The position numbers and the translations under genes were made by a program. This document shows, in pieces, positions 44,488 to 64,000 of a stretch of 64,000 bases of DNA; position 1 is the first letter of the stretch; every line of letters begins with the position of its first letter. The notes beneath the pieces were generated by a model. It was not told where the DNA came from. It ran no database searches and worked only from the letters and a program-made list of their open reading frames with translations. This DNA is from Bacillota bacterium (GTDB lineage: Bacteria; Bacillota; Desulfitobacteriia; Desulfitobacteriales; JAJXUE01). The stretch spans positions 15,136-79,135 of the forward strand of contig JAJXUE010000007.1 in NCBI GenBank assembly GCA_021783135.1, read 5' to 3'.

Positions 44488-45774
44488 TTGGCTAGCGTAA
44501 AAGTTACGATTACAGGCTTGGGGCACGAAGGAGAAGGGGTTGGCCGTGTAGACGGCAAAGCCACCTTTGTTGCAGGAGCCCTACCTGGTGAAACCGTACT
44601 GACAGAAATCAGACAGCAAAAGAAGAATTTTCAACGCGGCGAGCTACGGGAAGTGCTGGAAGCGGCACCCGAGCGCATAAACCCGCCCTGCCCGGTATTT
44701 GGCCGCTGCGGCGGGTGTCAGGTACAGCAGCTGGAATATCAGGCAACCTTAAATTGGAAACGCCAAAAAGTGCAAGACGCGTTAGTTAGGTTGGGCAAGC
44801 TTGAGCAAGTGGAAGTTAGTCCGGTACTGGGTATGCCAGAGCCATGGCGCTACCGCAACAAGGTTCAACTACATGTCGGGGAGCGCAGCGGAAGCATCCA
44901 GTTGGGGTATTACGGGCATAACACTAACCGCCTGGTGGCCTTTGACGATTGTCTGCTGCTGCCGCAAAGGTTTAATGCTTTAAAGGCTCGGCTGGAGATA
45001 TTTTTCAGGGAAAATGGGGTTAAACCGCAGCAGGTACAGCAGGTCGTCATACGCAATTCACCTGTTACAGGTGAGCTGATGGTGGGGATTATAGGTGTGT
45101 TGCCGCCATTGCCGTGGCAGGAAATTAGGCGCGATTTTCCGGAGCTTAAGTCGTTAGTCGTAGTCGACCCGGTAAGTGGTAAACCAAAGTTGGCGGCCGG
45201 ACAAGCGGTAATTAATGACGTCATTTATGATAATCAATTTGCAATATCCTTCGCGTCTTTTGTGCAGGTAAATCCGGGGCAAACTAAGGCGTTGTATGCC
45301 AAGGTACTGGAGTATGCCAATTTGCAGGGACAAGAAGTGGTATTAGATGCCTATTGTGGGATTGGGACGATTACATTGGCCTTGGCGCAACAGGCCAGGT
45401 GGGTAATTGGCGTAGAGGTGGCCCCAGAGGCAATCGCGGACGCCCGGGCCAATGCCACAGCTAATAAGATTCCAAACGTTGAATTCCACGCGGCGACAGC
45501 GGAGGAACTCTTGCCCCAGCTAGCGGCGCAAAAGCTCAAAGTAGATGTGGTGGTAGTCGATCCGCCGCGCAAAGGGTGCGAGCGGGAGGTGCTCGACGCG
45601 ATAGGCAAACTAGGCCCGAAGCGGCTGGTGTATGTATCATGCGACCCGGCGACCTTGGCGCGGGATTTAGGCGTGATGCAGGAGTTGGGGTATGTGACGG
45701 TAGGGGTGCAGCCGGTGGATATGTTCCCGTGGACGGCGCACGTTGAAACGATAATTCGGATAAATCGTGCTTAA
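44488..45774 (+). CDS. rlmD: 23S rRNA (uracil-C5)-methyltransferase RlmD/RumA family
   Basis: TRAM N-domain, Fe-S Cys cluster (CPVFGRCGGCQ), SAM motif LDAYCGIGT, DPPRKG, and C-terminal DMFPWTAHVE. TTG start. Confidence 0.88.
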   Translation: MASVKVTITGLGHEGEGVGRVDGKATFVAGALPGETVLTEIRQQKKNFQRGELREVLEAAPERINPPCPVFGRCGGCQVQQLEYQATLNWKRQKVQDALVRLGKLEQVEVSPVLGMPEPWRYRNKVQLHVGERSGSIQLGYYGHNTNRLVAFDDCLLLPQRFNALKARLEIFFRENGVKPQQVQQVVIRNSPVTGELMVGIIGVLPPLPWQEIRRDFPELKSLVVVDPVSGKPKLAAGQAVINDVIYDNQFAISFASFVQVNPGQTKALYAKVLEYANLQGQEVVLDAYCGIGTITLALAQQARWVIGVEVAPEAIADARANATANKIPNVEFHAATAEELLPQLAAQKLKVDVVVVDPPRKGCEREVLDAIGKLGPKRLVYVSCDPATLARDLGVMQELGYVTVGVQPVDMFPWTAHVETIIRINRA

Positions 45775-50091: not shown

Positions 50092-50127
50092 CATACAATT
50101 AAAATAAATCGTTCTTGGCGTTTACAT

Positions 50128-50400
50128 TTATTGACCTAGTCCGGCTCTTTTTAGTGTTTCATAGTCAATTCCCCTGTTGCTGCAGCAATCCACTAACTTT
50201 CCGTTGATAGCAACGGCAGGAACCGATTTAACGCCGTACTGCTCGGCCTTTTCAACGCATTCATTAGTATCACACTTTTTGTTTAAGTCGTATACCTTCA
50301 CTTCGCAGTTGGGACAAGCTAGAGTCTTTATTTCTTTTACAGCATTCTCACAGATGTAGCAACCAGCCGTAAAAATTTCAATCAGCCTCTTGTTAGCCAT
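50128..50400 (-). CDS. Thioredoxin-fold small redox protein (MTH895/Thioredoxin_3-like), Cys-rich
   Basis: 90 aa with CYIC and CPNC motifs plus four more Cys residues and the SVPAVAINGK pattern. ATG 50400 lies 6 nt after AAGGAGGTG and overlaps the merR stop. Confidence 0.65.
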   Translation of the reverse strand: MANKRLIEIFTAGCYICENAVKEIKTLACPNCEVKVYDLNKKCDTNECVEKAEQYGVKSVPAVAINGKLVDCCSNRGIDYETLKRAGLGQ

Positions 50401-50809
50401 TTTCCTCACCTCCTTCCGACAACCTTTCTACAATAGGACAACTATGAACAGGCCCTTGGTCGGGACATCTGCTCGATAAATCTTGTAGAACGCTTTTGAT
50501 GCTTTGTAGGTCACGTATTTTGGACTCTATCTCCTTTATCTTTTGTGAGGCAAATAGCCGAACTTCCCGACAACCAGAACTTTCGCTCTCAGTTATACTA
50601 AGAAGTTTTTTAATTACCGAAAGAGTAAACCCTAAATCTTGAGAGCGTTTTATGAACCTAATTCGCTGAATCACTTCAGGTGGAAAGATTCGGTAACCAG
50701 ATTTTGTTCGTGGGGGTTCCGATATCAAGCCTAATCTTTCATAATACCTAATCGTCTCGATATTTACGCCAGCGTTTTTAGCTAATTCGCTAATAGTCAG
50801 TCCATTCAT
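50393..50809 (-). CDS. merR: MerR-family metal-responsive regulator with Hg(II)-type cysteine triad
   Basis: HTH LTISELAKNAGVNIETIRYYERLGLI. Cys80, Cys115 and Cys124 have spacings of 35 and 9, identical to the recalled MerR triads (Tn501 C82/C117/C126; Bacillus C79/C114/C123). Confidence 0.8.
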   Translation of the reverse strand: MNGLTISELAKNAGVNIETIRYYERLGLISEPPRTKSGYRIFPPEVIQRIRFIKRSQDLGFTLSVIKKLLSITESESSGCREVRLFASQKIKEIESKIRDLQSIKSVLQDLSSRCPDQGPVHSCPIVERLSEGGEENG

Positions 50810-51239: not shown

Positions 51240-51304
51240 TATAGTGCCTTTTGGTTTTCAAAAACTGAAAGGCATTTTTTATTTAAATAAATAGGAGGGA
51301 AAAA

Positions 51305-52171
51305 ATGCTTAAATTAATTATCAGCAACACCCAAAAAGATGAACATGGGCAGCAGCTTGCGGTGCACGTTGAGCTTCCCGCGGCAGAGGAAACGCTTCAA
51401 AAAGCTGTCGGAGAAATCGGATTGAGCGATTTCGACAACGGCGGCTATGAGATCATTGGTCACTCCTTCGGAAAATATGAGGACCTGCAGAACAACATCC
51501 CAGGAGGCGCCAACATCAATGAACTCAATCTCCTTGCCCATAAGTTCAAAGGATTTACTGAAGAACAGGCTGAGGATTTCATGTCCCTGCTCACAGACTG
51601 CGGGGATATTACGGTCAAAGACCTCATCAACAAGGCGTACTACCTTGAAGACGACTCCTATGAAATATGGCATGGCGTCACGGATTTAGATGAGCTTGGA
51701 CACCGTTTTGTAGAGGAAAAAGCACCGGATCTGCCGGAGGAAATCTTTGAAAACATTGACTATGAGGATGTAGGCTACCATGTGCAGTCCAATGACCATG
51801 GCGAGTTTACTAATGCCGGATATATTCGCAACTCCAATGCGGTAGTGGACGAGGTATACGATGGCACTAACCTCATTGAACTGATTGCCAAAGAACGGGA
51901 GAAGCAAAAATCGTTGAAAAGTAAAGACGGATCTTTAAGTAAAGAGGATGTAATGATTAAAGCAACTATCGATGGTCTGACTGCTACTGCTGTAGAAAAA
52001 GCTTGTGTTCTTGGAGTGGAAGCAACAGAGGATATCGGTGAACTTCGTAAAACGGTAGCTGAACTGATCCGTTTTTGGAGCCTTGATGAGCGATGGCTTG
52101 AACAGTTTGATATGGAGGTTCAAACCGTCATGGAGGGTACGGTGAAGCAGAGCGGCATGCAGATAAACTAA
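51305..52171 (+). CDS. ArdA-like anti-restriction protein, single module plus ~90-aa C-terminal extension
   Basis: MLKLII start like its paralogs. Module end is FENIDYEDVGYHVQSNDHGEFTNAGYI. Strong SD (AGGAGGG). It ends 13 nt before the first pilus gene, with no terminator between them. Confidence 0.6.
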   Translation: MLKLIISNTQKDEHGQQLAVHVELPAAEETLQKAVGEIGLSDFDNGGYEIIGHSFGKYEDLQNNIPGGANINELNLLAHKFKGFTEEQAEDFMSLLTDCGDITVKDLINKAYYLEDDSYEIWHGVTDLDELGHRFVEEKAPDLPEEIFENIDYEDVGYHVQSNDHGEFTNAGYIRNSNAVVDEVYDGTNLIELIAKEREKQKSLKSKDGSLSKEDVMIKATIDGLTATAVEKACVLGVEATEDIGELRKTVAELIRFWSLDERWLEQFDMEVQTVMEGTVKQSGMQIN

Positions 52172-52184: not shown

Positions 52185-52916
52185 GTGATGAATAAGTTGA
52201 AGATACTCAAGAACCGGATATTTTTAAGCGTCCTCTGCATTGTCCTGGCAGGAGCCATTTCTTTTTTGCTCCTGCCGAAGTTTTATGCAGACAAGGGTGC
52301 GACAGTGATGGTGCTTCGGGCTGCGGAGGACATCCCGGCAGGCACAAAGATACAGAGTAAATATCTTGCTATGGTGGAGGTGGGAAAATTCGGTTTGCCC
52401 GATGCCGTCATCAAAGATAAGGTCTTGGCTGAAGGGAAGATCGCGCAGACTGACATTGCGAAGGGGGACTACGTGTTTACCCAAAAGATCGGTGACTTTG
52501 TCGCCGATGAAAAGCTGGACCGTATTGCCAGGGATAATAAACGGCTGGTTACCATCAGTGTGCCAAGCATTGCCGCAGGGCTCTCCTCCCATTTAGAAAG
52601 CGGCGACATTGTGACAGTGGCTGTCTTTTCAAATCAAAAAAAAGAGGGGGACGCAAGTCAAAGCACTCCCGCCCAGGTTATCCTCTACCCTGAACTGAAA
52701 GGACTGGAGGTTTACAGTGTGGAGAATGCCCGCACACAGAGCACCGCCCAGGTCCGAAAGCAGCAAGCGGAAAATCAGCAGTCTTCCAGCGATCCCATCC
52801 CCAAGGCGGTTACCCTGATAGCTACCGAAGCGCAGGCAGCGAAACTCATCGAAGCCGAATACACGGGCAAGCTGCATCTGATCTTTGAAAAAAGGGGGGT
52901 AAGCCATGAGCAGTAA
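52185..52916 (+). CDS. cpaB: Flp pilus assembly protein CpaB-like (SAF domain plus RcpC/CpaB region)
   Basis: N-terminal TM, SAF-like VLRAAEDIPAGTKIQSKYLAMVEV, and ...LVTISV...GD.V.V pattern. The exact start is uncertain. Confidence 0.65.
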   Translation: MMNKLKILKNRIFLSVLCIVLAGAISFLLLPKFYADKGATVMVLRAAEDIPAGTKIQSKYLAMVEVGKFGLPDAVIKDKVLAEGKIAQTDIAKGDYVFTQKIGDFVADEKLDRIARDNKRLVTISVPSIAAGLSSHLESGDIVTVAVFSNQKKEGDASQSTPAQVILYPELKGLEVYSVENARTQSTAQVRKQQAENQQSSSDPIPKAVTLIATEAQAAKLIEAEYTGKLHLIFEKRGVSHEQ

Positions 52917-53643
52917 AATCATCACTGTTTGGGGCAAGGGCAACAGCGGAAAAACCACTTTTGCGGTCAACTTAGCCTGCGCTTTGGCAAACCGTGACCA
53001 CCTTGTGGGGCTCATTTCCTCCAACCTGATCTACGGCGACCTGCAGGTGTATTTTGGGCAGAGCATACCACCGGAAAAGGGACTGTTCCGTGCGCTCCAT
53101 GAAGACAATCCCAATGTGGGTGAGAAGTTTATGGAGGCCGGGGAAAGTAAAAATCTCTTTTTTCTGTCCGTACCCAATCATTACACAGGGCTTTTATGTG
53201 ACAGCGTATCCCTCCAAAGCGTGGAAAGGCTCATCACCGCATCCACTCTCCTGTTCGACATCTTACTGATTGACGGCTCGGGGGATCTAACCAATCCCAT
53301 ATCCGGAACAGGGCTCTGGCTGGCGGAAAAGGTGTACACCCTGTACAGGCCGTCTGCCTCTGCCCCTATGTGGCATAAAGGAGTAGAGGATTTTGTCCAG
53401 GAACTTCATATCGCCGACAAGCAAATCAATGTAATGCAAACACCGAATGGTGAGTTCGATGACAAAACCTTTAAGAGTCTTATAGAGCTTTCCTTTAAAT
53501 ATGAACTTCCCTTTGTAAAGCAAGCAGGTGAGCTTGAAAACGCCGGTACTCCGGTGTTTTTTTATGAGGATCGAGGGTGCAGACAGTACAGAAGAGTCCT
53601 GGAAAAAATCTCAGATGAACTATGCGGAGGAAAGGACCAATGA
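52906..53643 (+). CDS. ParA/MinD-type ATPase, TadZ/CpaE-like pilus localisation protein
   Basis: Deviant Walker A VWGKGNSGKTTFAVNLA. 245 aa. Overlaps both neighbours (11-nt and ATGA overlaps). Confidence 0.65.
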   Translation: MSSKIITVWGKGNSGKTTFAVNLACALANRDHLVGLISSNLIYGDLQVYFGQSIPPEKGLFRALHEDNPNVGEKFMEAGESKNLFFLSVPNHYTGLLCDSVSLQSVERLITASTLLFDILLIDGSGDLTNPISGTGLWLAEKVYTLYRPSASAPMWHKGVEDFVQELHIADKQINVMQTPNGEFDDKTFKSLIELSFKYELPFVKQAGELENAGTPVFFYEDRGCRQYRRVLEKISDELCGGKDQ

Positions 53644-55034
53644 ACAAGGGATTTTCAGTCAATGAACTGATCTACAAGGCCAACAAGCAGGGCTCCGACA
53701 GCGGGGAGAACAGCCTGGAAGCCCAGGACTACGGCGACATTCTGGATAAATTGCAGCGGATTATCTCTAAAAACCACTCCACCGAATTGGCACAGGTGCT
53801 GTATTCGGAAGAAGCGGAGGGAAAGCTGAAGAACCTCATCATGCAGTATTTGAATAGTGAACGGATGGTGGCAAAGGGGATTCAAAATATTTCTGAGCTG
53901 GTCGATAGGGTATACAACGATATGGCAGGCATGGGGATTTTATCGGAATACCTGAAGGACAGCGAGGTTGAAGAGATCAACGTCAATGGGTACAACGGAG
54001 TATGGGTTTTATACAAGGATAAAAAGGTGCGGCTCCCGGTAACCTTCAGCAGCCCGGAGGCTTGCTCCAACATCGCCAAGAAAATGAGCCGCTTTGGCAA
54101 TGTCATCCTGGATGGCTCAAAGCCTATAGGCGACAGCTTTATTTCACGGGGCATCCGCATGTCCGGTGCCATTGTACCCTGCGTTGATTTCGATGCCGGT
54201 GCCATTGCTTCCATCAGAAAGCAAAAGCCGTCCTATATCACAAGAGAAAACCTGATTTATTGGGGGACAGCTACAGAAGATGAGCTGGATTTTCTCACCC
54301 TCTGCGTTAATAACGGCATATCGGTAGCCATCGCTGGGGCAACCGGCAGCGGAAAGACCTCCGATATGGGATATATTCTAAGCTGTATTTCAAGTGATAA
54401 AAGAATCGTAACCATAGAGGACACCCGCGAACTGACTCTGGTCCAAGTGGATGAAAACGGCGTAATGGTCAACGATGTCATTCACCTTTTGACAAAGGAA
54501 GAACCCAATCCCATTACCATGCTGGACCTGTTGAAGCTGTCTTTGAGGCTCCACCCGGCAATCCTTGTCCCGGCTGAGATGAGGGGGAAGGAAGCCCTGA
54601 CGGTGCAGGAAGCAGGACGTACAGGGCACACCATCGTCAGCACTCTGCATGCCAACAGTGCCAGGACAGCCTATGAAAGAATCCTGACCATGTGCCTGGA
54701 AGCCGGAACCTCCTTGTCGGAAGAAAGGTTGCTTAAAAATATCGTAGAAGCTTTTCCCATTATGGTCTTTAAAATGCAGTTGCCCGACCAGTCCCGAAAG
54801 TACATGGAAATCTTCGAGGCCACCGGGGTAAAAGATGGAGAGTTGGCAGGCAATACCCTTTTCCGATACGACATTGATCATTATGAAAAAGACGAAGCTG
54901 GAAGAATCAAAACGGTTGTAGGAAGTCACAAGCACATAGGGCATATATCCCAGACCCTTGCCGAGAGGCTCTTGATCAATGGGGTTGAACGAAAGGAAAT
55001 TTGCCGTTTCGCAGGAAACAAGTTTAAAAATTGA
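53640..55034 (+). CDS. cpaF: CpaF/TadA-family secretion ATPase (T2SS-E/VirB11 superfamily)
   Basis: Walker A GATGSGKTS, Asp box VTIEDTRELT, His box GHTIVSTLHANSA. ATG 53640 overlaps the upstream TGA. Confidence 0.85.
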   Translation: MNKGFSVNELIYKANKQGSDSGENSLEAQDYGDILDKLQRIISKNHSTELAQVLYSEEAEGKLKNLIMQYLNSERMVAKGIQNISELVDRVYNDMAGMGILSEYLKDSEVEEINVNGYNGVWVLYKDKKVRLPVTFSSPEACSNIAKKMSRFGNVILDGSKPIGDSFISRGIRMSGAIVPCVDFDAGAIASIRKQKPSYITRENLIYWGTATEDELDFLTLCVNNGISVAIAGATGSGKTSDMGYILSCISSDKRIVTIEDTRELTLVQVDENGVMVNDVIHLLTKEEPNPITMLDLLKLSLRLHPAILVPAEMRGKEALTVQEAGRTGHTIVSTLHANSARTAYERILTMCLEAGTSLSEERLLKNIVEAFPIMVFKMQLPDQSRKYMEIFEATGVKDGELAGNTLFRYDIDHYEKDEAGRIKTVVGSHKHIGHISQTLAERLLINGVERKEICRFAGNKFKN

Positions 55035-55047
55035 AGGGAGGTTGACT

Positions 55048-55962
55048 ATGAATAGCATCCAGGGTTCCCTTGCCTTTGTCTTTGTCCTGATCAGCCTTGC
55101 CCTTTTCCTCCTGCTGAAGCTTAACCCTTTTGCAGTGGAGAAAAACACTTTGAAACAGCGGCGGTTGTATCTGTCTAGGACAAAGCTGAAAATCAGCGAG
55201 AGAGTGATCCTCCGGTTCACAACCCTGTTCCGGCAAACCAGATACACGCTTAAGAAATTTATCCTGATGGTTGCCGCAGCATTTGTGTCGGGTTTTTTGG
55301 CGGGGGTTTTGCTTTTTAACAACGCTGGCTTAGCAGCGGTTACAGCAGTCTGCCTTATCCCTGCTCCTTACTTTTACCTGACTGTGAAAAGTTCCAGAGC
55401 AGCGAGGGAAGAAATTGAGGGGTTGGAAAATACCATGTCCATCATCACCAACGCCTATGCTGGATGTGACGATATTATCAAGGCGGTGGAAACCTATGTC
55501 GAAGAGAAGAACCGCTATACCCCTGTGGAGTTAATGAAGCCAACACCCTTCGATGAATTTATCTCAGAAATAAAGCTTATAAATCCCAACATAGAACATG
55601 GGCTGTACCGCCTGTCTGCTAAAATCAAAAACCGATACTTTGCCGAGTGGATAAAAATGTTGATTCTCTGCTATCACGACAGGCGGCTGAAATTTGCCCT
55701 GTTTCCCGTGATAAAGTCGATGAATGATGCCAAGGCCATGCAGATTGAAAGTGACAGCATGATGAGCAGGGTATGGCGGGATTATCTGATGACGGTGGGC
55801 ATGATGTTCAGTATTATTCCATTGATGCGTTTTTCAAATGCCGAATGGTTTGCCATTCTGACCGGAACCACCCTAGGAAAATTACTGATTGTCGTCATGC
55901 TCGTAACCGCTCTGGCAACTTCGTTCTTCGTGATGAAGATGACCAGGCCTGCCAACCGATAG
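55048..55962 (+). CDS. tadB: TadB-like type II secretion system F-family membrane protein
   Basis: N-terminal TM, cytoplasmic helical domain and C-terminal TM pair. It is in the canonical position after cpaF. ATG lies 7 nt after GGGAGG. Confidence 0.65.
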   Translation: MNSIQGSLAFVFVLISLALFLLLKLNPFAVEKNTLKQRRLYLSRTKLKISERVILRFTTLFRQTRYTLKKFILMVAAAFVSGFLAGVLLFNNAGLAAVTAVCLIPAPYFYLTVKSSRAAREEIEGLENTMSIITNAYAGCDDIIKAVETYVEEKNRYTPVELMKPTPFDEFISEIKLINPNIEHGLYRLSAKIKNRYFAEWIKMLILCYHDRRLKFALFPVIKSMNDAKAMQIESDSMMSRVWRDYLMTVGMMFSIIPLMRFSNAEWFAILTGTTLGKLLIVVMLVTALATSFFVMKMTRPANR

Positions 55963-56001
55963 AAAACTCAACCAAAATCAATTTTTCAGGGAGGTTTAAT
56001 T

Positions 56002-56907
56002 TTGTTCTATCAAATCATCGTCTTTGTCCTGCTGACTGCGGCAGGATTTTTAATTTGCAGGCAAATACTCAAAATACCCAAGCTGAGCATGAAAAAAAAC
56101 ATCAAAAACTTACAGGTAGAAAAAGAAAAAACGGGAGCAAGGTTGCTCAACCTTTTTGTGATGCCCCTTGTAAAGCCGGTATCCCGATTGATCAGAATTG
56201 AACCGGAGAAAGAAGCAAAAATGGCGTCAATGCTAAGACGTGGAGGACTTGCGCTAACACCAAAGGAATATCATGCACGTGCTCTCATCTGTGCTGCTTT
56301 CACCCTGCCGCTCTTGATTCTGCTTTTGGCAATCGGAGCAACAAACATTGCTCCTGCAATTCTTATCTTTTCGGTGGTAGTATATTTCCACTTCATGACC
56401 GACCTCAAAGACAAGCTGAAAGAGAAAAAGGAATTAATCGAAATAGAACTTCCAAGTTTTGTTCGCTCCATCCTCTATAAGCTTGAAGATGTGCGGGGCG
56501 GCAACGAAAATACGGTTGTCCAGGTGGACCTGATCCAGATATTTGAGGACTATCTAAAGGTAGCGAGTGAGGTTTTCTACTATGACATTGCGGTTCTGAT
56601 CATGGAGATGAAAGCCAAGGACATAGAAACAGCGCTTCGAAACTTCAGTGAGCGTGTCGGACTTCTTGAGGTATCCTTTTTGGTCAATGCCCTTATCGGC
56701 CTATACCGCGGAGAACATCAGGGCGAGGCTCTAATGTATCTTGCCAAGGATATGGACATCAAGGCGAAGGAAGCCCTGCGCAAAAATCTGGGCAAGCTGC
56801 CCGGCAAAATAAAAATGGCATCCATACCCCTTGTGGTAGTGACCCTGGCAAGCCTTTTATATGTTATAGGCTCCCATTTAGTCCGATCCATGGGGGGCCT
56901 TTTTTGA
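56002..56907 (+). CDS. tadC: TadC-like type II secretion system F-family membrane protein
   Basis: Same architecture as the preceding gene (a second T2SS-F paralog). TTG start 7 nt after GGGAGG. Confidence 0.65.
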   Translation: MFYQIIVFVLLTAAGFLICRQILKIPKLSMKKNIKNLQVEKEKTGARLLNLFVMPLVKPVSRLIRIEPEKEAKMASMLRRGGLALTPKEYHARALICAAFTLPLLILLLAIGATNIAPAILIFSVVVYFHFMTDLKDKLKEKKELIEIELPSFVRSILYKLEDVRGGNENTVVQVDLIQIFEDYLKVASEVFYYDIAVLIMEMKAKDIETALRNFSERVGLLEVSFLVNALIGLYRGEHQGEALMYLAKDMDIKAKEALRKNLGKLPGKIKMASIPLVVVTLASLLYVIGSHLVRSMGGLF

Positions 56908-56962
56908 TGTGAAAACGGGGCAACCCTTTTCAAATAAAACTATATTATTCAGGAGGTAAAGC

Positions 56963-57214
56963 ATGAAAAACGGAACAAACACAATCCAAATCACGGAGGA
57001 AAGGAGGTCAAACCCCATGAGAAACAAAATGGCAAACGCCTTTTCAAAGGCAAGAGGACTTATGGTTAACAAGTCCGGTGACCAGATGACAGGCTGGCTC
57101 ATTGTCGTACTGATCGTAGTGGTAGTGGGTGCAGTATTCATGACCCTGTATCAGGGTTCCATTACGCAAATCTGGAACAGTATTGTCACCAAGATTACAA
57201 GTCTTTTGGGCTAA
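56963..57214 (+). CDS. Flp-like type IVc pilin candidate 1
   Basis: Basic leader ending ...NKSG, then DQMTGW and a 20-aa hydrophobic helix. The mature part would be about 44 aa. ATG 57017 is an alternative start and aligns better with paralog 2. Confidence 0.55.
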   Translation: MKNGTNTIQITEERRSNPMRNKMANAFSKARGLMVNKSGDQMTGWLIVVLIVVVVGAVFMTLYQGSITQIWNSIVTKITSLLG

Positions 57215-57240
57215 ATAACGGCAAACTGTAAAATTACCCA

Positions 57241-57279
57241 CAAAGGTAAAAAGGAGAAACTTTCTCCCTTTTACCTTTG
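57241..57279 (+). other. Long hairpin after pilin gene 1 (attenuator or 3' stabiliser)
   Basis: 19-bp stem CAAAGGTAAAAAGGAGAAA / TTTCTCCCTTTTACCTTTG with one mismatch and a 1-nt loop. No canonical U-tract follows. Confidence 0.55.
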
Positions 57280-57377
57280 ATGAAATGTTTTGCAACTGAT
57301 ATTACGGGCCTCAACTCTGGTAAAACCTTAAAAAATCAAACTGAAATCAAAAAATAACTATACGGAGGCATTTTTCT

Positions 57378-57587
57378 ATGATGAGAACTTTGAGAAACAA
57401 AATGGCGATGGCAGGCTTAAAGGCTAGGAAAGTATTGACCAATCAATCCGGCGATCAGATGACAGGCTGGCTGATCGTTGTACTGATCGTAGTCGTCGTC
57501 GGTGCGGTATTTATGACGCTTTACCAGGGTTCTATTACGCAGATTTGGAACAGTATTGTAACCAAAATCACCGGCCTTTTGAGCTAA
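57378..57587 (+). CDS. Flp-like type IVc pilin candidate 2 (paralog of 56963-57214)
   Basis: SGDQMTGWLIVVLIVVVVGAVFMTLYQGSITQIWNSIVTKIT is identical to paralog 1 over 42 aa. The leader differs. It has its own SD (ACGGAGG). Confidence 0.55.
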   Translation: MMRTLRNKMAMAGLKARKVLTNQSGDQMTGWLIVVLIVVVVGAVFMTLYQGSITQIWNSIVTKITGLLS

Positions 57588-57637
57588 ACTATTCGGCGGC
57601 TGCGAAACAACACCGCCAGAACAGGGGGTGTAAAGGG

Positions 57638-58126
57638 ATGAACAGGCAGTGCCGGAGCTTATGGGGGAGATGTTCTCCCCCTTTTTCTTTGAAAAAGGTG
57701 TTGGTTAATCGAAAAGGTAGTGCCTATTATGAACTGATTATCAAAACCTTGGTGGTCATTACACTGATGGCGACGGTGATGTCCTTCTTAAGCATCTTCA
57801 CCACCTATCTGAGTCTTAACCAGGTCTGCCGCCGGGTGGTCCGGGTCATTGAGCTGGAGGGACAGGTATCGGACAATGCATATGATGTTTTTTATCGGCT
57901 CAAGGAACAAACCGGGCTGTCTCCTGAAATGAGCATCGGGGATGTCAATTATTGTGATGAACAAAACCAAAAAATTCAGCTAAGAGATACTTTTACAGTA
58001 AAGATGAAATACAACTATGCCTTTACGGTGTTTCGGCCTTCCTCCTCTCCACCGGTGCAAATCATCATACCCATGGAGGTGCGCATCACGGGCATGTCGG
58101 AAAAATATTGGAAGCTTTTAGAGTGA
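57638..58126 (+). CDS. TadE-like minor pilin / pseudopilin candidate (DUF4320-like)
   Basis: ...NRKG/SAYYELIIKTLVVITLMATVM has Gly, then Glu at +5, then a hydrophobic helix, which is a class III signal-peptide-like site. The start is uncertain (ORF open from 57545). Confidence 0.5.
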   Translation: MNRQCRSLWGRCSPPFSLKKVLVNRKGSAYYELIIKTLVVITLMATVMSFLSIFTTYLSLNQVCRRVVRVIELEGQVSDNAYDVFYRLKEQTGLSPEMSIGDVNYCDEQNQKIQLRDTFTVKMKYNYAFTVFRPSSSPPVQIIIPMEVRITGMSEKYWKLLE

Positions 58127-58152
58127 AAGCGCCGGAAGGGAGGGATAATTTT

Positions 58153-58638
58153 GTGGGCAAAACCGGACCCATTTTAAAAAGCAAAAAAGGCGATGGGCTG
58201 GTGTTTATCTTGATCCTCATCTTTTTTATTATGACCCTTGCAGCCATCGTCATTGAATATTTCCGCATGGACAGCCTGTACCAGCAGGTGGAATATGTGC
58301 TCCAGCGGGGAGTGAATTCCTCCGTGGAGTACGCCATGCTGGACGAATACCGCAAAGACGGCTATGCCCGGATGGACAGCGCCCTTGCGGAAGAACAGCT
58401 CTACGGCTATCTTCATGAAAGCATGCAGCTGGACCGAGATCTGAACAAGTATTCCGGGGAGCAATGGGTGTACACCCTTGAAATCCAGAGCCTCACCGCA
58501 ACCGATGATCCGCCCCGGCTCATCTTGAAAGGGCAGTTGAGAACCCGGAGCGTTTTTAGTTTCCTGACTGGCGAGGTGCGGCTGCCCTTTACTCTCTCCA
58601 GCAGCAACAACAGAATTGATGAAGGAGGTTCCCCATGA
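58153..58638 (+). CDS. TadE/TadG-like minor pilin candidate
   Basis: ...KSKKGDGLVFILILIFFIMTLAAIVIEYF N-terminal hydrophobic helix. GTG 58153 lies 8 nt after GGGAGGG. Its 3' end overlaps the next gene (ATGA). Confidence 0.45.
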   Translation: MGKTGPILKSKKGDGLVFILILIFFIMTLAAIVIEYFRMDSLYQQVEYVLQRGVNSSVEYAMLDEYRKDGYARMDSALAEEQLYGYLHESMQLDRDLNKYSGEQWVYTLEIQSLTATDDPPRLILKGQLRTRSVFSFLTGEVRLPFTLSSSNNRIDEGGSP

Positions 58639-61600
58639 AGCAAAAAGTAATTATTGCTATACCCTTGGCGTTTTTATGCTGTCTGCTATTTTCAACGCAA
58701 GTCTTTGCCCTGTCCGGCAGCGACATTACGCTGAAAATACGCTCTCCCGTAAACAGCCTGACCAGTGAAAGCGGTGTGATCGCGGTGGAGCAGTTTCCGG
58801 CAGAAATTGCCATCAGCGTTGCGGCAAAGGCGGGCAATTTGGCAGGAATACAATTAAGCCATAACGGTCAGACCCTGGAGATTCCGGCGGACCACATTCT
58901 GACCATTGCGAATAAAGAAGCCTGCGGGGTGTATACCCTGACAGCGAAAACAGATGGGGGCGCAGTCCTCACCATAAGCACAAATGTAGTATTCCAGGTA
59001 AAAGCCACATACAATATCCGCTACCGCACGGTAGGGATGAATTTGAAGGAAGCCTATGATGGAGCAGACAAGCTAAAGACCTTCCCCACACCCCAGCGCA
59101 TTGACCTGGTGCAGGCCAACACCATCGCCGGATACGAGCAGAAACGCTTTGCCGGGCTGATCGGCAGGAGCGACGGCAGGACCTACACGTTGAAGGGCAG
59201 TCTGGTGGTGGAGGTTTACGACTATTCCACCGGGAAGGTCATCGGGACCTATGATGCAAATCAGGATTTTGATGCCCTGACTAAAGGTTTTCATTGGACC
59301 ACCAAGAGCCTCATGGCCTTTGAAACCATGCGGAACACGGCAATCACCTATCAAGCCCCTGTGAAAATTGACGTCCAGGCTACATGGTGCAGTGAAGACA
59401 AGCAGGAGGTGTACGGCAAAGCTACGGCACAGGACAGGGGTGTGCCGGAATACCTCTATCCCTACCAGACTACCAGCGTCACCTTCTCAAAGGATGATAT
59501 CCCCCTATCGCGCAACTATATCTATAGAGGTCTGGAATGGGATTACAAACCGGAAACTGCCGGATACACCGATGGGGAAAGTCAGACCCAAACGGTAATT
59601 ACTCAGAAAATCAATTATATGATTCCAGTAGCGAATTTTTACTTCAAGTTTAAAAAACAGGATGGCAACGACCTTTCCGTGAGCATCCACGCCCCTGAAA
59701 CCGTCTACCGAGGGGATAGCTATTCTTTCGAGGAGGTTTTTACCAACCATGGCGCAGCACCTGCCTATGATGTGCCCTTGATCGGCACCGTAGACCGGGA
59801 GCAGATGAAAGAAATCCCTGCCAAGCAGGATTTCTCGCCTAACGAAAGCAAAACCTTCACCCTCACACGGAATACTGACAAAGCAGGGGCAGTCATAACG
59901 TTGTGGGCGCAGATCGAAGTGCCCGAGGGATTTATGGATAAGAACCCGGAGAACAATACCGCGACATCGGTCATCCGGGTGGTGGAAAAACCGGAGCCGA
60001 CCCCAAGCCAGGGGAAGAACCCCGAACCGGACAAAGAAAATCCGCCACCGGCGGAAAATCCCGACCCGGAAAAGCTGTGTGATGAATCGGCAAGCATTGC
60101 AGCGCCGCCCACCGTTTACGAAGGGGAGACTTATCGCTTTACGGTGAGCTTTACCAACCATTCCGACAGGATGCTGAAGGATGCAGGGGTACAGGGGAAA
60201 AACAATGAGGTCGTTTTAGACTCAATTCCCAAAGCGCTTGACTTCAATCCCCTGGAAACCAAGACCTATACCCGCACCGGACAGGCGGGGCATGTGGGTG
60301 AGGTATATAACCTGTGGGCGAATATCGGAGTGCCCGAGGGCTTCCAGGATGAAAATCCGGTCGATAACACCGCGGCTTCCAAAATTACTGTTGTGGCAAA
60401 ACCCTCGGGCAATCCGCCCAGAAACTCGGATAATCCACCCAACAATCCGGATAATCCGCCGAAAAACCTGGACAATCCACCTAAAAATCCGGATAATCCG
60501 CCGAAAAACCCGGACAATCCACCTAAAAATCCGGATAATCCACCGACAAACCCAGACAATCCACCTGAAAATCCGAATAACCCGCCAACGAATCCGGTTC
60601 CCCCCCATGATCCCGGACATCCGCCCGTCGACCCGGTGGTGCCGCAGGAGAAGCTGTGCGATGTATGGGTGAACCTGTCCTACCCGCCCACGGTCTATGA
60701 GCAGGAGGAATATAGCTTTACTGTGTACTTCGGCAATGACACGGATAAAGCGCTGTCAGGGGTAAGCTTAAACGCTTCCATTGACGGTAAGGCAGTTTCA
60801 GCCGTACCGACTGCGGCAGATTTCCAAGCCCATGAAACTAAAGCCTTCCTTGTCAAAGGCAAGGCAGGAGAAAAAGGCACAACCATCCGACTGTCGGCCC
60901 AGGTGTCGCCACCTGCAGAGTACAGGGATACCAACACAAGCAACAACCGAGCTGAGGCAGAGCTTTCTGTAGTGGAGCGTCCCTATGACTTGGATGTGCA
61001 GCGGATCACGCCCGACTGGTACAAGGAGAATCAGACGGTCATCAGCACCATCAAGGTGTCAAACCGGGGAAGCCTGGACTTTACGCCTGGACAGAAGGTT
61101 TCAGTCCAGTTTGAAGTCCCGGAGCTTTTACTTAAAAAACGTATTGATGCTATCGTCATGGAAAAGGATACATGGAACGTCGTATCGGTCAAATGGGATA
61201 CCCCCAACGTGCAGGCCGATAAAAACATCACCCTGATTGCGGTCATCAATCCCGACCAAGTCCTGGACAATGAAACATCCAACGCCAACAACACCTATAC
61301 CCAAAAGGCCATCATCAAAAATGTAACCTATGATGAGCCGGAAGAGAATACAACCATTCCTGCACCACCGCCAAGAAGTGAGCAGCCCAGGGTGACCTGG
61401 AAGGAGCAGCAATATGAAAACGACCGGTTTGTTTGGAAAGACTTCTACGCCGAGCTAAAAGTAGATGCCGTCCTTGACTATGAAACAAAGGCAAAAGGCT
61501 ATATCAAATCGGGATATGGTTTTTCCATCAATGTTACGACCTCTGTGAATACCAACTATGATAAGTCGGAGCTGATTACTGCGCCGCAGACTGCCGAGGT

Positions 61601-61874
61601 CTATCTGCCCCAGTACCGCTATGAAACAGCCATACCACTAATGAAGGAGGGCGACCATTTTACATTCAAAGAAAATCTCACTTCACCCTTTCGATACAAG
61701 AAGCAATATGTCCCGGTATGGTTCCCCGATGACAGGGACTATATCGTGCAGCTCCTTGTCACCGATGTGCACACTCCCGGAGGTACCCTATCTAAATGGA
61801 TCACCGGAGGAAATCTGAAAATGAAGGTGGTTGACAGCATGTACTCCGATGATGTCACCACGGGAAGTCCATGA
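58635..61874 (+). CDS. Secreted 1079-aa CARDB-repeat protein with Pro/Asn-rich heptad stalk (candidate pilus-associated adhesin)
   Basis: Signal peptide MKQKVIIAIPLAFLCCLLFSTQVFA. Four CARDB-like modules of about 110 aa each end in E/D-N-x-x-N-N (about 59672-59995, 60074-60410, 60652-60985, 60985-61320). There is a (D-N-P-P-x-N-P)n linker and no LPXTG motif. Confidence 0.7.
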   Translation: MKQKVIIAIPLAFLCCLLFSTQVFALSGSDITLKIRSPVNSLTSESGVIAVEQFPAEIAISVAAKAGNLAGIQLSHNGQTLEIPADHILTIANKEACGVYTLTAKTDGGAVLTISTNVVFQVKATYNIRYRTVGMNLKEAYDGADKLKTFPTPQRIDLVQANTIAGYEQKRFAGLIGRSDGRTYTLKGSLVVEVYDYSTGKVIGTYDANQDFDALTKGFHWTTKSLMAFETMRNTAITYQAPVKIDVQATWCSEDKQEVYGKATAQDRGVPEYLYPYQTTSVTFSKDDIPLSRNYIYRGLEWDYKPETAGYTDGESQTQTVITQKINYMIPVANFYFKFKKQDGNDLSVSIHAPETVYRGDSYSFEEVFTNHGAAPAYDVPLIGTVDREQMKEIPAKQDFSPNESKTFTLTRNTDKAGAVITLWAQIEVPEGFMDKNPENNTATSVIRVVEKPEPTPSQGKNPEPDKENPPPAENPDPEKLCDESASIAAPPTVYEGETYRFTVSFTNHSDRMLKDAGVQGKNNEVVLDSIPKALDFNPLETKTYTRTGQAGHVGEVYNLWANIGVPEGFQDENPVDNTAASKITVVAKPSGNPPRNSDNPPNNPDNPPKNLDNPPKNPDNPPKNPDNPPKNPDNPPTNPDNPPENPNNPPTNPVPPHDPGHPPVDPVVPQEKLCDVWVNLSYPPTVYEQEEYSFTVYFGNDTDKALSGVSLNASIDGKAVSAVPTAADFQAHETKAFLVKGKAGEKGTTIRLSAQVSPPAEYRDTNTSNNRAEAELSVVERPYDLDVQRITPDWYKENQTVISTIKVSNRGSLDFTPGQKVSVQFEVPELLLKKRIDAIVMEKDTWNVVSVKWDTPNVQADKNITLIAVINPDQVLDNETSNANNTYTQKAIIKNVTYDEPEENTTIPAPPPRSEQPRVTWKEQQYENDRFVWKDFYAELKVDAVLDYETKAKGYIKSGYGFSINVTTSVNTNYDKSELITAPQTAEVYLPQYRYETAIPLMKEGDHFTFKENLTSPFRYKKQYVPVWFPDDRDYIVQLLVTDVHTPGGTLSKWITGGNLKMKVVDSMYSDDVTTGSP
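60408..60596 (+). repeat. In-frame 21-nt tandem repeat, 9 units, encoding (D/G/N)NPPxN(P/L/S)
   Basis: Units were read directly. The pair of units at 60450-60491 is repeated at 60492-60533 with 41/42 identity. Confidence 0.9.
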
Positions 61875-62284
61875 TGCTGCTGCTTTACGCCATCCCGATG
61901 GTCTGTGCTGCCATCACGGATTGGAAAAAACGGATTATTCCCGATTGGACATGGATTGCCATTCTTATGGTGGGATTTGCTTCTGCGGTCATCAATGGTA
62001 AAGGAATCTTATATATTCCCCTGCTTGAAAGATTTACGGGACTTTTGTTCCCGGCAGTCTGCCTTCTTATGATTGCTTTCAAATGGGGCGGTGTTGGTGG
62101 AGGAGATATTAAGCTGATGGCAGCCTTAGGCTTTTGTTTCGGGCTTTACGGACTTGTAGCCATCCTCTTTTTTGCTGTCATCCCTGCCTGCATTTATGCC
62201 AGAGCGACAAAGCAAAGGAGCGTGCCTTTGGCCGTATTTTTGTGCATCGGTTTCTTTGTATATGCCGGTCTTTTACTTTCATAG
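61871..62284 (+). CDS. A24-family prepilin peptidase (TadV/CpaA-like)
   Basis: 137-aa polytopic protein with two Asp motifs (AITDWKKRIIPD; GGGDIKLMAALG). ATGA overlap with the upstream gene. Confidence 0.75.
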   Translation: MMLLLYAIPMVCAAITDWKKRIIPDWTWIAILMVGFASAVINGKGILYIPLLERFTGLLFPAVCLLMIAFKWGGVGGGDIKLMAALGFCFGLYGLVAILFFAVIPACIYARATKQRSVPLAVFLCIGFFVYAGLLLS

Positions 62285-62351: not shown

Positions 62352-62783
62352 GTGATACATTTTCACGATGAAGTCCACCGGCAGAAGGTCGTAAACTGCT
62401 TGCAAAAGGAAAACAGGATTTATCCCGATGGCAGGGCTGACAGCTATTACCTGCCTGCCCTGTATCTGCTTCTCTCTACAAAAAACGATCTGTATAAAAA
62501 GACCAGCAGGTATATCGACAGGGATGGCATCGACTTTGAAAAAATGCTATCCAAACAGGACTTTCCCAGCAGTGAAAGAAAGCTTATCAAACTGGCGGCC
62601 AATCTTTTCAACGACTCTATGGAGGTTTCCCCTTCGGAGTTGATCGACACGCTGGATGAGGAAAACTTTACTCTGGCTATGCAGGCCATTTTTCTCAAAC
62701 GCACCAGTTGCCACGTTCAGGAGCTGCTTCCTGCTGCAAAGGAAGTTCCTGAACTGGAGCCACAGTATGAGCTGAAGATGTAG
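62352..62783 (+). CDS. DUF6075-like protein (conjugative-element associated)
   Basis: 143 aa. The pattern ...F...EH......L.......D.YY.PALYLL... ...R.LIKLAANLFN is as recalled for DUF6075. GTG start after GGGAGG. Confidence 0.45.
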   Translation: MIHFHDEVHRQKVVNCLQKENRIYPDGRADSYYLPALYLLLSTKNDLYKKTSRYIDRDGIDFEKMLSKQDFPSSERKLIKLAANLFNDSMEVSPSELIDTLDEENFTLAMQAIFLKRTSCHVQELLPAAKEVPELEPQYELKM

Positions 62784-62839: not shown

Positions 62840-64000
62840 TTGAATGAAATAAAAATAACGGTTTTAAGAGATGATCTCTGCGATAACTCCAGCTATATCG
62901 GTGCACACCTCTGTCTACCTGCAACGAATGCCGAAATACAGGATGCCCTTGAAAAAGCAAGGATCGATGATGAGCATCCAGATTTTATGGTAGTGGATTA
63001 TGCGTGTGGGCAGGATTACTTAAACGAGCTTCTGCCGAAGAAGGCTTCGCTTTATGAGCTTGACTACCTCGCAAGGCGGCTGGCCAGTATGGATGATTTT
63101 GAAAAAGTAGCTTTTGAGGGAGTAGTAAAAATGGAGGGAGCGCCTGACCTTGTTAAGCTCATCAACCTCACCTACAACCTCGCCGATTGTAATGTAGCCT
63201 TTGCAGTGTACAATGACAAGCAGCTCGGCAAATTTTATGTCGACAATGAGTTCATAACGGAGCTGGAGAAAGTGCCTGAAAAAGTGCTGCAATACCTCGA
63301 CTATGAAAAGGTGGGACGTATCCACAGAGAGGCAGAAAAGGGTGTGTTCACGAAAACCGGTTATGTAGTGCAATCAGAGCCGGATATAAAGGTTGTCTAT
63401 GACAGCACCAACATTCCCAAGCCCGATGACGATAGCGGATATGTTTTCAAGCTGTATCTTATAGAAGGATGTTTTGAACCGGAAAAAGCAAAAGGGGTTT
63501 GGCTGAAGCTTCCTGCATCGGAGGCAGAAATCGTGTCGGCCCTGGCGGAGATCGGGGTGGCTTCTTTATTTGATTGCGTTTTTACCCACTGCGAAAGCAG
63601 CATGCCCTGCTTCGAGGATGTGTTCTCTGAAAGTGAGGACATAGAAATGCTGAATATCTTAAGCAATGCTATTTCAAAAATCATAGATAGCAATATGGGC
63701 ACTAAGTACAAAGCTGCCCTTCAATATGAATACTGCACCGATCTGGACTTGGCCATTGACATTGCACAAAACCTGGACTGCTACAGCTTTTATTCCTCTC
63801 TTTGCTCACCAGAGGACTATGGACGGCAGGCACTGCTCAAAGCATCCGGGCTCCCGCCCGATGATATAGCCTTTAAGTTTCTTGATTTCAGACAGTACGG
63901 TGAAGCAAAAATGAAGGAGCATGGGGTGAAATTCACAGATTACGGATTGATTTGCCGCAACGAGAAAGAGTTTGTGTTCGAATTTTGTACCAGACCGCAA
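62840..64000 (+). CDS. ArdA-like anti-restriction protein, at least two modules, 3' end outside the window (absent from the ORF track because no stop is reached)
   Basis: Frame is open from TTG 62840 (7 nt after GGGAGG) to nt 64000. Module ends are LQYLDYEKVGRIHREAEKGVFTKTGYVV and FKFLDFRQYGEAKMKEHGVKFTDYGLIC. Confidence 0.65.
   Translation, partial: MNEIKITVLRDDLCDNSSYIGAHLCLPATNAEIQDALEKARIDDEHPDFMVVDYACGQDYLNELLPKKASLYELDYLARRLASMDDFEKVAFEGVVKMEGAPDLVKLINLTYNLADCNVAFAVYNDKQLGKFYVDNEFITELEKVPEKVLQYLDYEKVGRIHREAEKGVFTKTGYVVQSEPDIKVVYDSTNIPKPDDDSGYVFKLYLIEGCFEPEKAKGVWLKLPASEAEIVSALAEIGVASLFDCVFTHCESSMPCFEDVFSESEDIEMLNILSNAISKIIDSNMGTKYKAALQYEYCTDLDLAIDIAQNLDCYSFYSSLCSPEDYGRQALLKASGLPPDDIAFKFLDFRQYGEAKMKEHGVKFTDYGLICRNEKEFVFEFCTRPQ

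Follow-up and report, generated by a model that had tools for sequence, protein, structure and literature searches.

A Tad-type pilus module among conjugative-element genes of a Bacillota bacterium, and its candidate role in mating

Why should an integrated element in an apparently monoderm bacterium carry a whole type IV pilus operon? The question is raised by a stretch of 64,000 nucleotides from a Bacillota bacterium of the Desulfitobacteriales (assembly GCA_021783135.1, contig JAJXUE010000007.1, positions 15,136 to 79,135 of the forward strand; hereafter the window, coordinates being those of this whole stretch). Positions 52185-62284 hold 11 intact open reading frames (ORFs), all on the + strand and at the coordinates of the original prediction, which had read them as a complete Tad/Flp-like pilus operon of a conjugative-type element, perhaps serving donor-recipient contact or adhesion. 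We conclude that the operon is very probably a functional Tad-type pilus module of an integrative and conjugative element (ICE). From gene content and context we lean modestly towards the module serving mating, and, by analogy with the thin pilus of IncI plasmids, we regard it as fairly probable that it would work as a dedicated mating pilus that captures recipients. The mating reading is based on near-universal synteny with conjugation genes in the loci sampled, and on conservation of the pilin and of a large secreted protein across habitats. By gene content, the operon is a member of a distinct Tad clade, recognisable by very short pilins of Flp size, a pseudopilin of the DUF4320 family, a further prepilin-like protein and a large DUF8194/8195 protein that is secreted, and this clade is found, as far as sampled, in conjugative elements of Clostridia.

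Linkage to conjugation genes

The element can be followed past the window end on contig DAIDQL010000005.1 of assembly GCA_027447525.1, which matches the window with 0 mismatches in 11,649 nt. Beyond the window, this identical contig carries ArdA, D12 methylase, MazE-like, YodL and two SpoVG genes, and then, about 4.5 kb past the window end (locus L001, 16815-20432), a second pilus module that begins with a DUF6133 pilin, an A24 peptidase, CpaB, TadZ and CpaF. We refer to the window copy as Tad1 (type 1) and to the copy beyond the window as Tad2 (type 2). Our reading of the identical contig ended in the first genes of Tad2, and orthologous and related loci gave the map onwards to the type IV coupling protein (T4CP) and cargo; as such, the relaxase and T4CP are established for the element family, and not on this exact contig. 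Every Tad1 component has a collinear counterpart in Tad2, with 22-37% amino acid identity. The Tad2 peptidase gene (L001 ~17050-17461) has a 20-nt 5' deletion relative to Dehalobacter and a change of RIIPD to WIILD, and the enzyme may be impaired in this genome; the peptidase of the window would then be the only intact one.

Members of the Tad2 family share a long gene order that runs from the pilus into a type IV secretion system (T4SS). Pilin, A24 peptidase, CpaB, TadZ, CpaF, two membrane proteins, DUF4320 and a ~180-aa protein are followed by DUF6550, a 576-aa DUF8193-8195 protein, DUF3852, the VirB6-like TrbL_5, DUF7768 and a 202-aa protein. The order continues with a VirB4-like ATPase (~612 aa), an optional amidoligase plus GGACT and an M23 or NlpC/P60 hydrolase, and then DUF6329 or DUF3846, a small DUF6103-like protein, a ribbon-helix-helix (RHH)-like accessory protein, a MobL relaxase, DUF3991/Toprim and a VirD4-type T4CP. 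Among 80 species-representative TrbL_5 loci, 66 had at least 4 kb of upstream sequence, and Tad components lie upstream of TrbL_5 in 63 of these 66 informative loci; the three exceptions are two loci with DUF3852 and inserted cargo, and one 7.8-kb contig (L071) without any Tad-side component. A VirB4-like gene is present in 55 of the 60 Tad2-family loci with enough downstream sequence, and 25 full-length MobL loci from metagenomes carry a T4CP in every case and a VirB4-like gene in 23. Scores for the element family are strong (MobL 1.7e-47; T4SS-DNA_transf, the T4CP family, 1.7e-43 and 1.8e-45). The contig of Desulfosporosinus metallidurans that holds a window-type module also holds Tad2 together with TrbL_5, VirB4-like and M23 hydrolase genes, and D. 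metallidurans contig MLBF01000019 encodes a 610-aa AAA_10/TraG-P-loop ATPase that is 85% identical to the family reference. For CpaF2 there are 4423 homologues, and identity across Clostridia is at least 64%, mostly at least 77%, in the top 120; hosts of the Tad2 family include Desulfosporosinus, Dehalobacter, Pelotomaculum, Oscillibacter valericigenes, Muricomes, Enterocloster and Marasmitruncus, together with many human-gut metagenome contigs. The DUF3852 protein has a signal peptide and two hydrophobic helices with a charged loop between them, a layout described for the VirB2-like pilins of Gram-positive T4SS (bioRxiv 10.64898/2025.12.18.695078), and the T4SS thus appears to have a VirB2-like pilin of its own. 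Amidoligase_2 and the gamma-glutamyl cyclotransferase-like GGACT are conserved inside the T4SS block of many members, ~4.6-5.6 kb downstream of TrbL_5 (L029, L079 and others).

Tad2, directly upstream of the T4SS, is judging from these maps the canonical copy, and the window copy is an extra, divergent module in the ArdA-rich end of the element. CpaF1 has 2754 homologues, the top 120 being at least 78% identical, and all eight window-type modules whose contexts were sampled lie among conjugative-element genes, their neighbours including ArdA, ArdC/YodL, ParAB, topoisomerase, a giant methylase-helicase, DUF6664 and DUF3991/Toprim. These modules occur in three layouts. The dual-module layout is found in D. 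metallidurans (94-98% amino acid identity), in Dehalobacter CP003869.1 and on one metagenome contig, and at least four genomes keep this pair of modules. In another layout the order is ParA, ParB, Tad1, A24, small genes, the giant methylase-helicase, DUF6664 and DUF3991/Toprim, and in the third a CD1107-like gene, topoisomerase and DUF4316 precede Tad1 and an ArdC/YodL gene follows it. One dual-module relative (L181, 18267-23090) has three successive tyrosine-recombinase genes after two DUF6133 pilins, where the rest of Tad2 would be expected. The original prediction had pointed to the sequence beyond nt 64,000, and to a survey of homologous loci, as the places to look for transfer genes. Taken together, the contig and the orthologous and related elements do carry VirB6-like, VirB4-like, hydrolase, MobL and VirD4-type genes, and conjugation genes co-occur with the homologous loci wherever these were examined.

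A third and a fourth variant of the module are found on plasmids. A megablast search of the 10-kb locus against PLSDB gave zero matches, and a tblastn search with CpaF1 against the same database found 11 Firmicutes plasmids at 28-38% identity. The circular Oscillospiraceae plasmid CP141730.1 (L178) encodes an A24 peptidase, CpaB, TadZ, CpaF, two membrane proteins, a pilin, DUF4320, another protein and a 1610-aa protein, and further along DUF3991/Toprim, DUF3852, TrbL, DUF87 (VirB4) and M23. The circular Clostridioides difficile plasmid pCd5_2 (NZ_CP037841.1, L179) encodes a prepilin peptidase, CpaB, an AAA ATPase, CpaF, two membrane proteins and DUF4320, and further along a VirD4-like gene of the CD1115 family and a conjugation protein of the pLS20_p028 family. 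The presence of such modules by conjugation genes on both plasmids indicates that the link of this pilus clade with conjugation spans several T4SS backbones. Ten of the 11 CpaF1-related plasmids, including CP141730.1 and pCd5_2, were typed as non-mobilizable by MOB-suite; as plasmids with Tad-like modules beside conjugation genes are among those so called, the gene maps suggest that standard mobility typing misses these systems.

Components and conservation of the window module

The assignments of the original prediction stood in full for several components and in part for others. Its CpaB-like SAF protein matches the RcpC and SAF domains and also TIGR03177 (73.9 bits; cut-off 71). Its CpaF/TadA ATPase, in which the Walker A and His-box strings are present, has the Caulobacter CpaF structures 8rkd and 9e24 as its best matches in the PDB (4.5e-37, residues 49-452), with FlaI at 3e-22 and VirB11 at 5e-15. 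It is as such far closer to Caulobacter CpaF than to FlaI or VirB11, and is therefore a Tad-type motor rather than the VirB11 of a T4SS. An assignment as T4SS VirB11 was considered and rejected, because CpaF matches ~22 orders of magnitude better and because platform, pilin and peptidase genes surround the gene. At 134 bits against a cut-off of 373, the protein is not a member of TIGR03819, which NCBIfam names 'TadA family conjugal transfer-associated ATPase'. The predicted ParA/MinD-type TadZ-like protein does have a matching P-loop, with support that is borderline (CbiA 25.7 bits; cut-off 25.4) and confined to the N-terminal P-loop; its sister-module orthologues match AAA_31 and CbiA, and the gene lies between CpaB and CpaF in all relatives. 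The peptidase was correctly recognised as an A24 enzyme and has both catalytic Asp motifs (...ITDWKKRIIPD and GGGDIKL). Neither a secretin (RcpA) nor TadD was matched by any of the 11 proteins; the lack of a secretin had been predicted, and absence of both is expected in monoderms (PMC6668835).

The two membrane proteins had been called T2SS-F-like. Neither has a Pfam match to T2SSF of its own, and this part of the claim is weaker than it was stated to be; T2SSF is the sole Pfam family that recurs among their relatives (four of 17 sampled members of the TadB-like family; eight of 84 relatives of the TadC-like protein, best 1.9e-05). The TadC-like family comprises 509 cluster representatives at 50% clustering, and the TadB-like protein is 27% identical to, and collinear with, the 309-aa protein of the second module. 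Profile searches of the PDB with both families returned no T2SSF-type structure and chance matches only, with E above 0.07, and an hhalign comparison of the two families with each other was weak (probability 26%, E 7e-4). In position, size and topology, the two proteins fit TadB and TadC.

The two short pilin candidates are of Flp size, with two or three tandem copies per module, and the mature type-1 pilin has ~45 aa. In an alignment that combined three Tad2 pilins (DUF6133) with 16 type-1 pilin genes drawn from six elements, the mature type-1 pilin G/DQMTGWLIVVLIVVVVGAVFMTLYQGSITQIWNSIVTKITGLL (the slash marks the predicted cleavage site) was nearly invariant across all 16 copies, with variable leaders. 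The sister-module pilins align with those of type 1 and have the site CG/ENFVD, with an acidic +5 residue and no Tyr6. The Flp Pfam model had no match among the window proteins. 'Flp-like' Gram-positive pilins without Tyr6 were catalogued in 2011 (PMC3244431), and the window pilins correspond to these.

The claim of two TadE-like minor pilins was borne out in the prepilin leaders, one with the noted class-III-type site G/SAYYE, and not in the family: the TadE Pfam model had no match, and the pseudopilins are instead DUF4320 and an unnamed family. On present alignments, the DUF4320 protein and the 161-aa protein are functional analogues of TadE/TadF and not family members by hidden Markov model (HMM). 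The DUF4320 site, conserved as (R/K)KG/S[AS]Y[YF][ED]L in type 1 and as RG/EGY[IV]D in type 2, is acidic at +5; a single-sequence AlphaFold2 (AF2) model shows a long N-terminal helix and a beta-sheet, and with a mean predicted local distance difference test (pLDDT) of only 56 it was not used for fold search. The 161-aa protein has a conserved leader ...KKG/DGLVF (KG/D..F) from which the acidic +5 residue is absent, its type-2 counterpart reading KG/SAFPL. In other type IV filament systems, the minor pilin without an acidic +5 residue is the tip-most one. Because it lacks this residue, the 161-aa protein is a candidate tip or initiating minor pilin.

The 1079-aa protein has a Sec signal peptide visible in its sequence and repeated domains of ~137 aa. 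Of the original description as a secreted CARDB-repeat protein, secretion and Ig-like (immunoglobulin-like) repeats were upheld; CARDB had no match to the window protein in our own Pfam scan and is 'faint' among precomputed matches of orthologues, in which DUF8194 and DUF8195 are the firm matches of the large protein. In all, then, the profile-HMM searches that the original prediction had proposed supported CpaB, CpaF, A24 and, newly, DUF4320, and left T2SSF, TadE, CARDB and Flp weaker than claimed. AF2 modelling from a 64-sequence alignment (pLDDT 69.8) gives a chain of confident Ig-like beta-sandwiches with disordered Pro-rich linkers at residues 454-478 and 591-671. A Foldseek search against the PDB returned generic multi-Ig or macroglobulin arrays only, with template modelling (TM) scores of ~0.1 and no functional lead. 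The protein has 127 homologues (1020-1080 aa), and conservation among them is even along the length, with a peak in the C-terminal domain; at 27% identity, the C-terminus is homologous to the 576-aa DUF8193-8195 protein encoded in Tad2. Length varies only in a linker of NPDNPPK-type units, encoded by a 21-nt tandem repeat of ~8-10 copies at 60385-60615.

Comparison of the window with the D. metallidurans and Dehalobacter copies gave ratios of nonsynonymous to synonymous substitution (dN/dS) of 0.00-0.46 over all 11 genes, most of them 0.05-0.2. As judged from these ratios, all 11 genes are under purifying selection. The mature pilin and the large protein are nearly unchanged across subsurface, thermophilic cellulolytic and gut hosts, and this invariance across habitats is easier to reconcile with a conserved bacterial target than with a niche-specific surface.

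Operon layout and the left end of the element

The 11 co-directional genes (Table 1) overlap in start and stop codons just as predicted, with 52906 lying within the gene that ends at 52916 and ATGA at 53640, 58635 and 61871, and their translations contain the predicted strings GKGNSGKTT, GATGSGKTS, IEDTRELT, STLHANSA and KG/SAYYE. Some gene starts needed correction. The TadB-like protein probably starts at 55048 (mechanical ORF 54979), which gives 304 aa as in relatives, and the start of an earlier 176-aa ORF was corrected to 58153. For the DUF4320 gene the most likely start is TTG 57689, just after a hairpin at 57663-57681, which gives the leader MKKVLVNRKG/SAYYE. The hairpin itself is a candidate attenuator that could set the ratio of pilin to machinery.

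Table 1. Coordinates of the pilus operon and neighbouring features in the 64-kb window.
Feature	Position	Strand	Evidence
rumA/TrmA-like RNA (uracil-5) methyltransferase, last backbone gene	44488..45774	+	Pfam tRNA_U5-meth_tr and TRAM
Two ArdA-family anti-restriction genes	47089-48261, 48262-49440	+	Pfam ArdA 2.4e-17, 1.4e-16; second also DUF6329
Third ArdA gene, 13 nt 5' of the pilus operon	51305..52171	+	Pfam ArdA 1.3e-17
CpaB/RcpC-like protein: membrane anchor, SAF domain, RcpC domain	52185..52916	+	RcpC 2.6e-17, SAF 1.6e-08, TIGR03177
TadZ-like ParA/MinD-type P-loop protein	52906..53643	+	CbiA 1.2e-05, ParA 2.2e-05, N-terminal P-loop only
CpaF/TadA-family motor ATPase	53640..55034	+	T2SSE 2e-27; Caulobacter CpaF structures
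TadB-like platform membrane protein	55048..55962	+	Collinear paralogue; T2SSF in some relatives
TadC-like platform membrane protein	56002..56907	+	T2SSF in some relatives
Tandem Flp-sized pilin genes	56963-57214 (83 aa), 57378-57587 (69 aa)	+	Alignment with DUF6133 pilins
GC-rich hairpin and T-run, candidate attenuator	57663..57681	+	8 pairs, 6 of them G-C
DUF4320 minor pilin (pseudopilin), class-III-type leader	57689..58126	+	DUF4320 3.9e-42
Second prepilin-like protein (161 aa)	58153..58638	+	Conserved leader; no Pfam match
1079-aa Sec-secreted Ig-like protein, C-terminal DUF8195	58635..61874	+	Signal peptide; precomputed DUF8194/DUF8195
TadV-type short prepilin peptidase (137 aa)	61871..62284	+	Peptidase_A24 5.7e-17
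DUF6075 gene	62352..62783	+	DUF6075 2.7e-06
Fourth ArdA gene (394 aa), truncated at the window end	62840..64000	+	ArdA match on the identical contig, L001 10489-11673

That the locus lies off the chromosomal backbone, as had been proposed, is clear from its surroundings. Positions 1 to ~45.8 kb are backbone, with transporter, his, PcrA, LigA, GatA/B and rumA-like genes, and the GC content falls from ~0.50 to ~0.42 at ~46 kb. The left junction of the element is at or just after the 3' end of the rumA-like gene, and the element continues past the window end; its right end and integrase lie beyond the sequence examined, which covered the left junction only. From the junction, a 110-aa gene, two ArdA genes, a minus-strand cassette, the third ArdA gene, the pilus operon, DUF6075 and the fourth ArdA gene follow one another, with ArdA on both sides of the operon and DUF6075 downstream as the original prediction had them. 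A Tad1-carrying element of C. thermosuccinogenes also abuts a rumA-like gene, and the similarity of the two rumA-like genes stops after ...VDMFP.T.HVE; the motif TTTCAG(G)CACTTTG just past the rumA-like stop is common to both elements (window 45740-45830; L092 1120-1200). As both adjoin a rumA-like 3' end with this motif, a single integration site and related recombinases are suggested.

Strong terminator-like hairpins on the + strand at 47012-47050 (18-bp stem) and 51243-51276 (15-bp stem) split the left end of the element into transcription units. The latter precedes the third ArdA gene, and there is no terminator-like site between that gene (51305-52171) and 52185, in agreement with the 13-nt gap free of a terminator noted originally. 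On this arrangement the third ArdA gene is probably co-transcribed with the pilus operon. Four ArdA paralogues, ~22-30% identical to one another, lie within 17 kb, an unusual concentration of anti-restriction genes, and the D. metallidurans copy has a further one just past the gene that corresponds to the fourth in the window (L093, 18196 onward). The minus-strand cassette amid the ArdA genes (49581-50809) consists of three genes, whose products are a regulator of the MerR family, a thioredoxin-like protein and a [2Fe-2S] protein of the CopZ-type zinc-finger/BFD-like kind; it is kept in the D. metallidurans element and absent in Dehalobacter, and is probably metal or redox cargo. An Rfam scan of the whole window at gathering thresholds returned zero families, and no tRNA gene was found in it.

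What the pilus may do

The closest functional analogy is the thin pilus of the IncI plasmids R64 and TP114, in which a conjugative element likewise combines a T4SS with a separate type IV pilus, and this pilus joins donor and recipient in liquid or in the gut (PMC12857230, PMC9045228). The likeness is functional only: PilS/PilV pilins, PilN secretin and shufflon recombinase had no family match among the window proteins, the IncI pilus is of type IVb with a secretin and the window's is Tad-like without one, the components are not orthologous, and the window element differs also in having no shufflon or variable tip adhesin, two modules, and a host inferred to be monoderm. Elements of the PAPI-1/ICEclc type are similar in being integrative elements with a type IV pilus cluster tied to transfer. 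PAPI-1 is in contrast Gram-negative and of type IVb, with few recognisable T4SS parts, unlike the family described here with its VirB6-like and VirB4-like proteins, hydrolase, relaxase and T4CP. Pilus-assisted conjugation is established for IncI plasmids and PAPI-1 (PMC12857230, PMC9045228), and transfer of the PAPI-1 island depends on its pilus. With the Tad/Flp systems of Caulobacter (Cpa), Aggregatibacter (Tad) and Bifidobacterium breve (Tad), the window operon shares CpaB, a TadZ-like protein, CpaF, two TadB/C-like proteins, very short pilins, pseudopilins and a short TadV peptidase, and, as in other monoderm Tad loci, it lacks a secretin. It is unlike these systems in that its pilins have neither the G/XXXXEY motif nor an Flp match, its pseudopilins are DUF4320 and an unnamed family rather than TadE/TadF, it adds a Sec-secreted DUF8194/8195 Ig-repeat protein, and its clade resides in conjugative elements rather than in chromosomal colonisation islands.

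A mechanism can be proposed on these grounds. Homology supports the first steps, in which the TadV peptidase processes the pilins and both minor pilins at the bond following the conserved Gly, and CpaF, docked on the TadB/C-like platform with TadZ and CpaB as organisers, polymerises the ~45-residue pilin into a thin filament crossing the cell wall without a secretin. The minor pilins may prime the tip, and the Sec-exported Ig-repeat protein may join the tip or line the passage through the wall. The filament would bind a recipient, CpaF-driven retraction would draw donor and recipient together, and the T4SS of the element, with its VirB2-like DUF3852, VirB6-like TrbL_5, VirB4-like ATPase, wall hydrolase, MobL relaxase and VirD4-type T4CP, would then form the mating junction. 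The two divergent modules may widen the range of recipients or conditions, or may give redundancy.

Mating is not the only function that such an operon could serve. The module could be cargo for adhesion or colonisation, a fitness gene set of the 'widespread colonisation island' type with no role in DNA transfer, which would target surfaces, minerals, plant fibre or mucosa, or promote biofilm formation or aggregation. Every characterised Tad system is, as far as is known, such an organelle (PMC6668835, PMC12786226). Surface adhesins are typically large secreted proteins with Ig repeats and Pro-rich linkers, like the one in this operon, and the position of the window-type module differs between at least three element backbones, as that of cargo would. 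The sampled contexts are however conjugative elements, with the sister module operonically adjoining the T4SS in 63 of 66 loci, and near-invariance of the pilin and large protein from subsurface to thermophilic cellulolytic to gut hosts would be unexpected for a niche-specific adhesin; cell aggregation would moreover promote mating anyway, so that this explanation overlaps with a mating function. We consider pure adhesion cargo unlikely, though a serious competitor. It is a good deal less probable that the Tad-like apparatus is part of a hybrid translocation machine, acting in the DNA conduit through the thick wall or in DNA uptake. Such a machine would account for a sister module that is coupled in an operon to VirB6 and VirB4 genes and for a VirB4-like ATPase that is unusually short (~612 aa), and it has precedents in PAPI-1 (PMC12857230) and in the Flp pili that act in transformation of Micrococcus luteus (PMC8467076, PMC6370729). 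It fits poorly with a T4SS set that looks complete for a monoderm (VirB2-like candidate, VirB6, VirB4, hydrolase, T4CP and relaxase), with the physical separation of the window copy from the T4SS, and with the lack of ComEA/ComEC-type genes in the parts of the element examined. Finally, as the module duplicates one elsewhere in the same element, and several surrounding ArdA paralogues suggest accretion of element parts, the window copy might be a redundant, decaying and non-functional duplicate left by recombination of two elements. The low dN/dS against D. metallidurans and Dehalobacter, together with the 11 intact frames, rules this out for practical purposes; the dual arrangement is also conserved in at least four genomes, and the damaged-looking peptidase gene belongs to the other module. 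We therefore give decay the smallest probability by far.

Several observations nonetheless weigh against the reading of the window module as a mating pilus of Tad type. Classical Tad pili are organelles of adhesion and colonisation. The window copy lies ~15 kb from the T4SS amid genes of leading-region type, the window-type module moves between element backbones like cargo, and its contexts were sampled at eight loci only. A T4SS with its own VirB2-like pilin does not obviously require a second filament. No adhesin, hypervariable receptor-binding part or shufflon-like variability is recognisable in the 1079-aa protein among its homologues, and its C-terminal 160 residues, though the most conserved, are of low confidence in the AF2 model. 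The type-1 pilin site, G/DQMTGW, has Asp at +1 and lacks both the acidic +5 residue and Glu5-Tyr6, the pilins are thus without the canonical Flp motif G/XXXXEY, and the T2SSF assignment of the platform proteins depends on transitive weak matches. The monoderm status of the host is itself taken from its relatives.

The view of the field has been that Gram-positive donors find and hold recipients in mating by adhesins rather than by pili. VirB2-like pili for Gram-positive T4SS were reportedly proposed only in late 2025. Such pili (PrgF of pCF10; bioRxiv 10.64898/2025.12.18.695078) are like the system described here in being filaments of Gram-positive conjugation systems, and DUF3852 has the same layout; they are unlike it in being the T4SS's own pilus, the window locus being a separate type IV filament machine. 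The same December 2025 preprint states that type IV (competence) pili are absent from Gram-positive T4SS operons (bioRxiv 10.64898/2025.12.18.695078), a T4SS review of December 2025 never mentions Tad and gives pilus-assisted transfer only for IncI plasmids and PAPI-1, and Tad components are not among the families that a 2014 survey reported in association with VirB4. Tad operons in Gram-positives were catalogued in 2011 (PMC3244431), and Tad is transferred horizontally at high frequency (PMC6668835). At the level of annotation, 'T4SS and T2SS homologs' have been noted on the Sulfobacillus plasmids pL15 and pY0017 (PMC6803676), and Flp-pilus plasmids in Cutibacterium acnes (PMC5696575). These reports share with our data Tad-like ATPase and platform genes by conjugation genes; the DUF4320/DUF8195 clade and its systematic linkage to T4SS are not described in the papers searched. 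For Tad-like loci on conjugative elements of Firmicutes, the searchable literature yielded annotation-level mentions only and no functional study.

A module family tied to Clostridial conjugation systems is a broader and more interesting picture than a single locus. The gene-level link of a Tad-type module with T4SS, relaxase and T4CP genes is conserved across dozens of Clostridia species, with homologues numbering thousands in metagenomes, and DUF4320, DUF6133, DUF8193-8195 and DUF3852 are marker families by which such elements can be recognised. The link offers a testable candidate for mating-pair formation in strict anaerobes, including gut commensals and the plasmids of C. difficile. Tentatively, and as a possibility that we place a little below the mating role of this one module, a large unrecognised class of Clostridia conjugative elements and plasmids may use a dedicated retractile Tad-type mating pilus, with two modules extending the range of recipients. 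If so, this class would include human-gut Lachnospiraceae and Oscillospiraceae and C. difficile plasmids now typed as 'non-mobilizable', and it would represent the first type IV pilus-dependent conjugation in monoderms.

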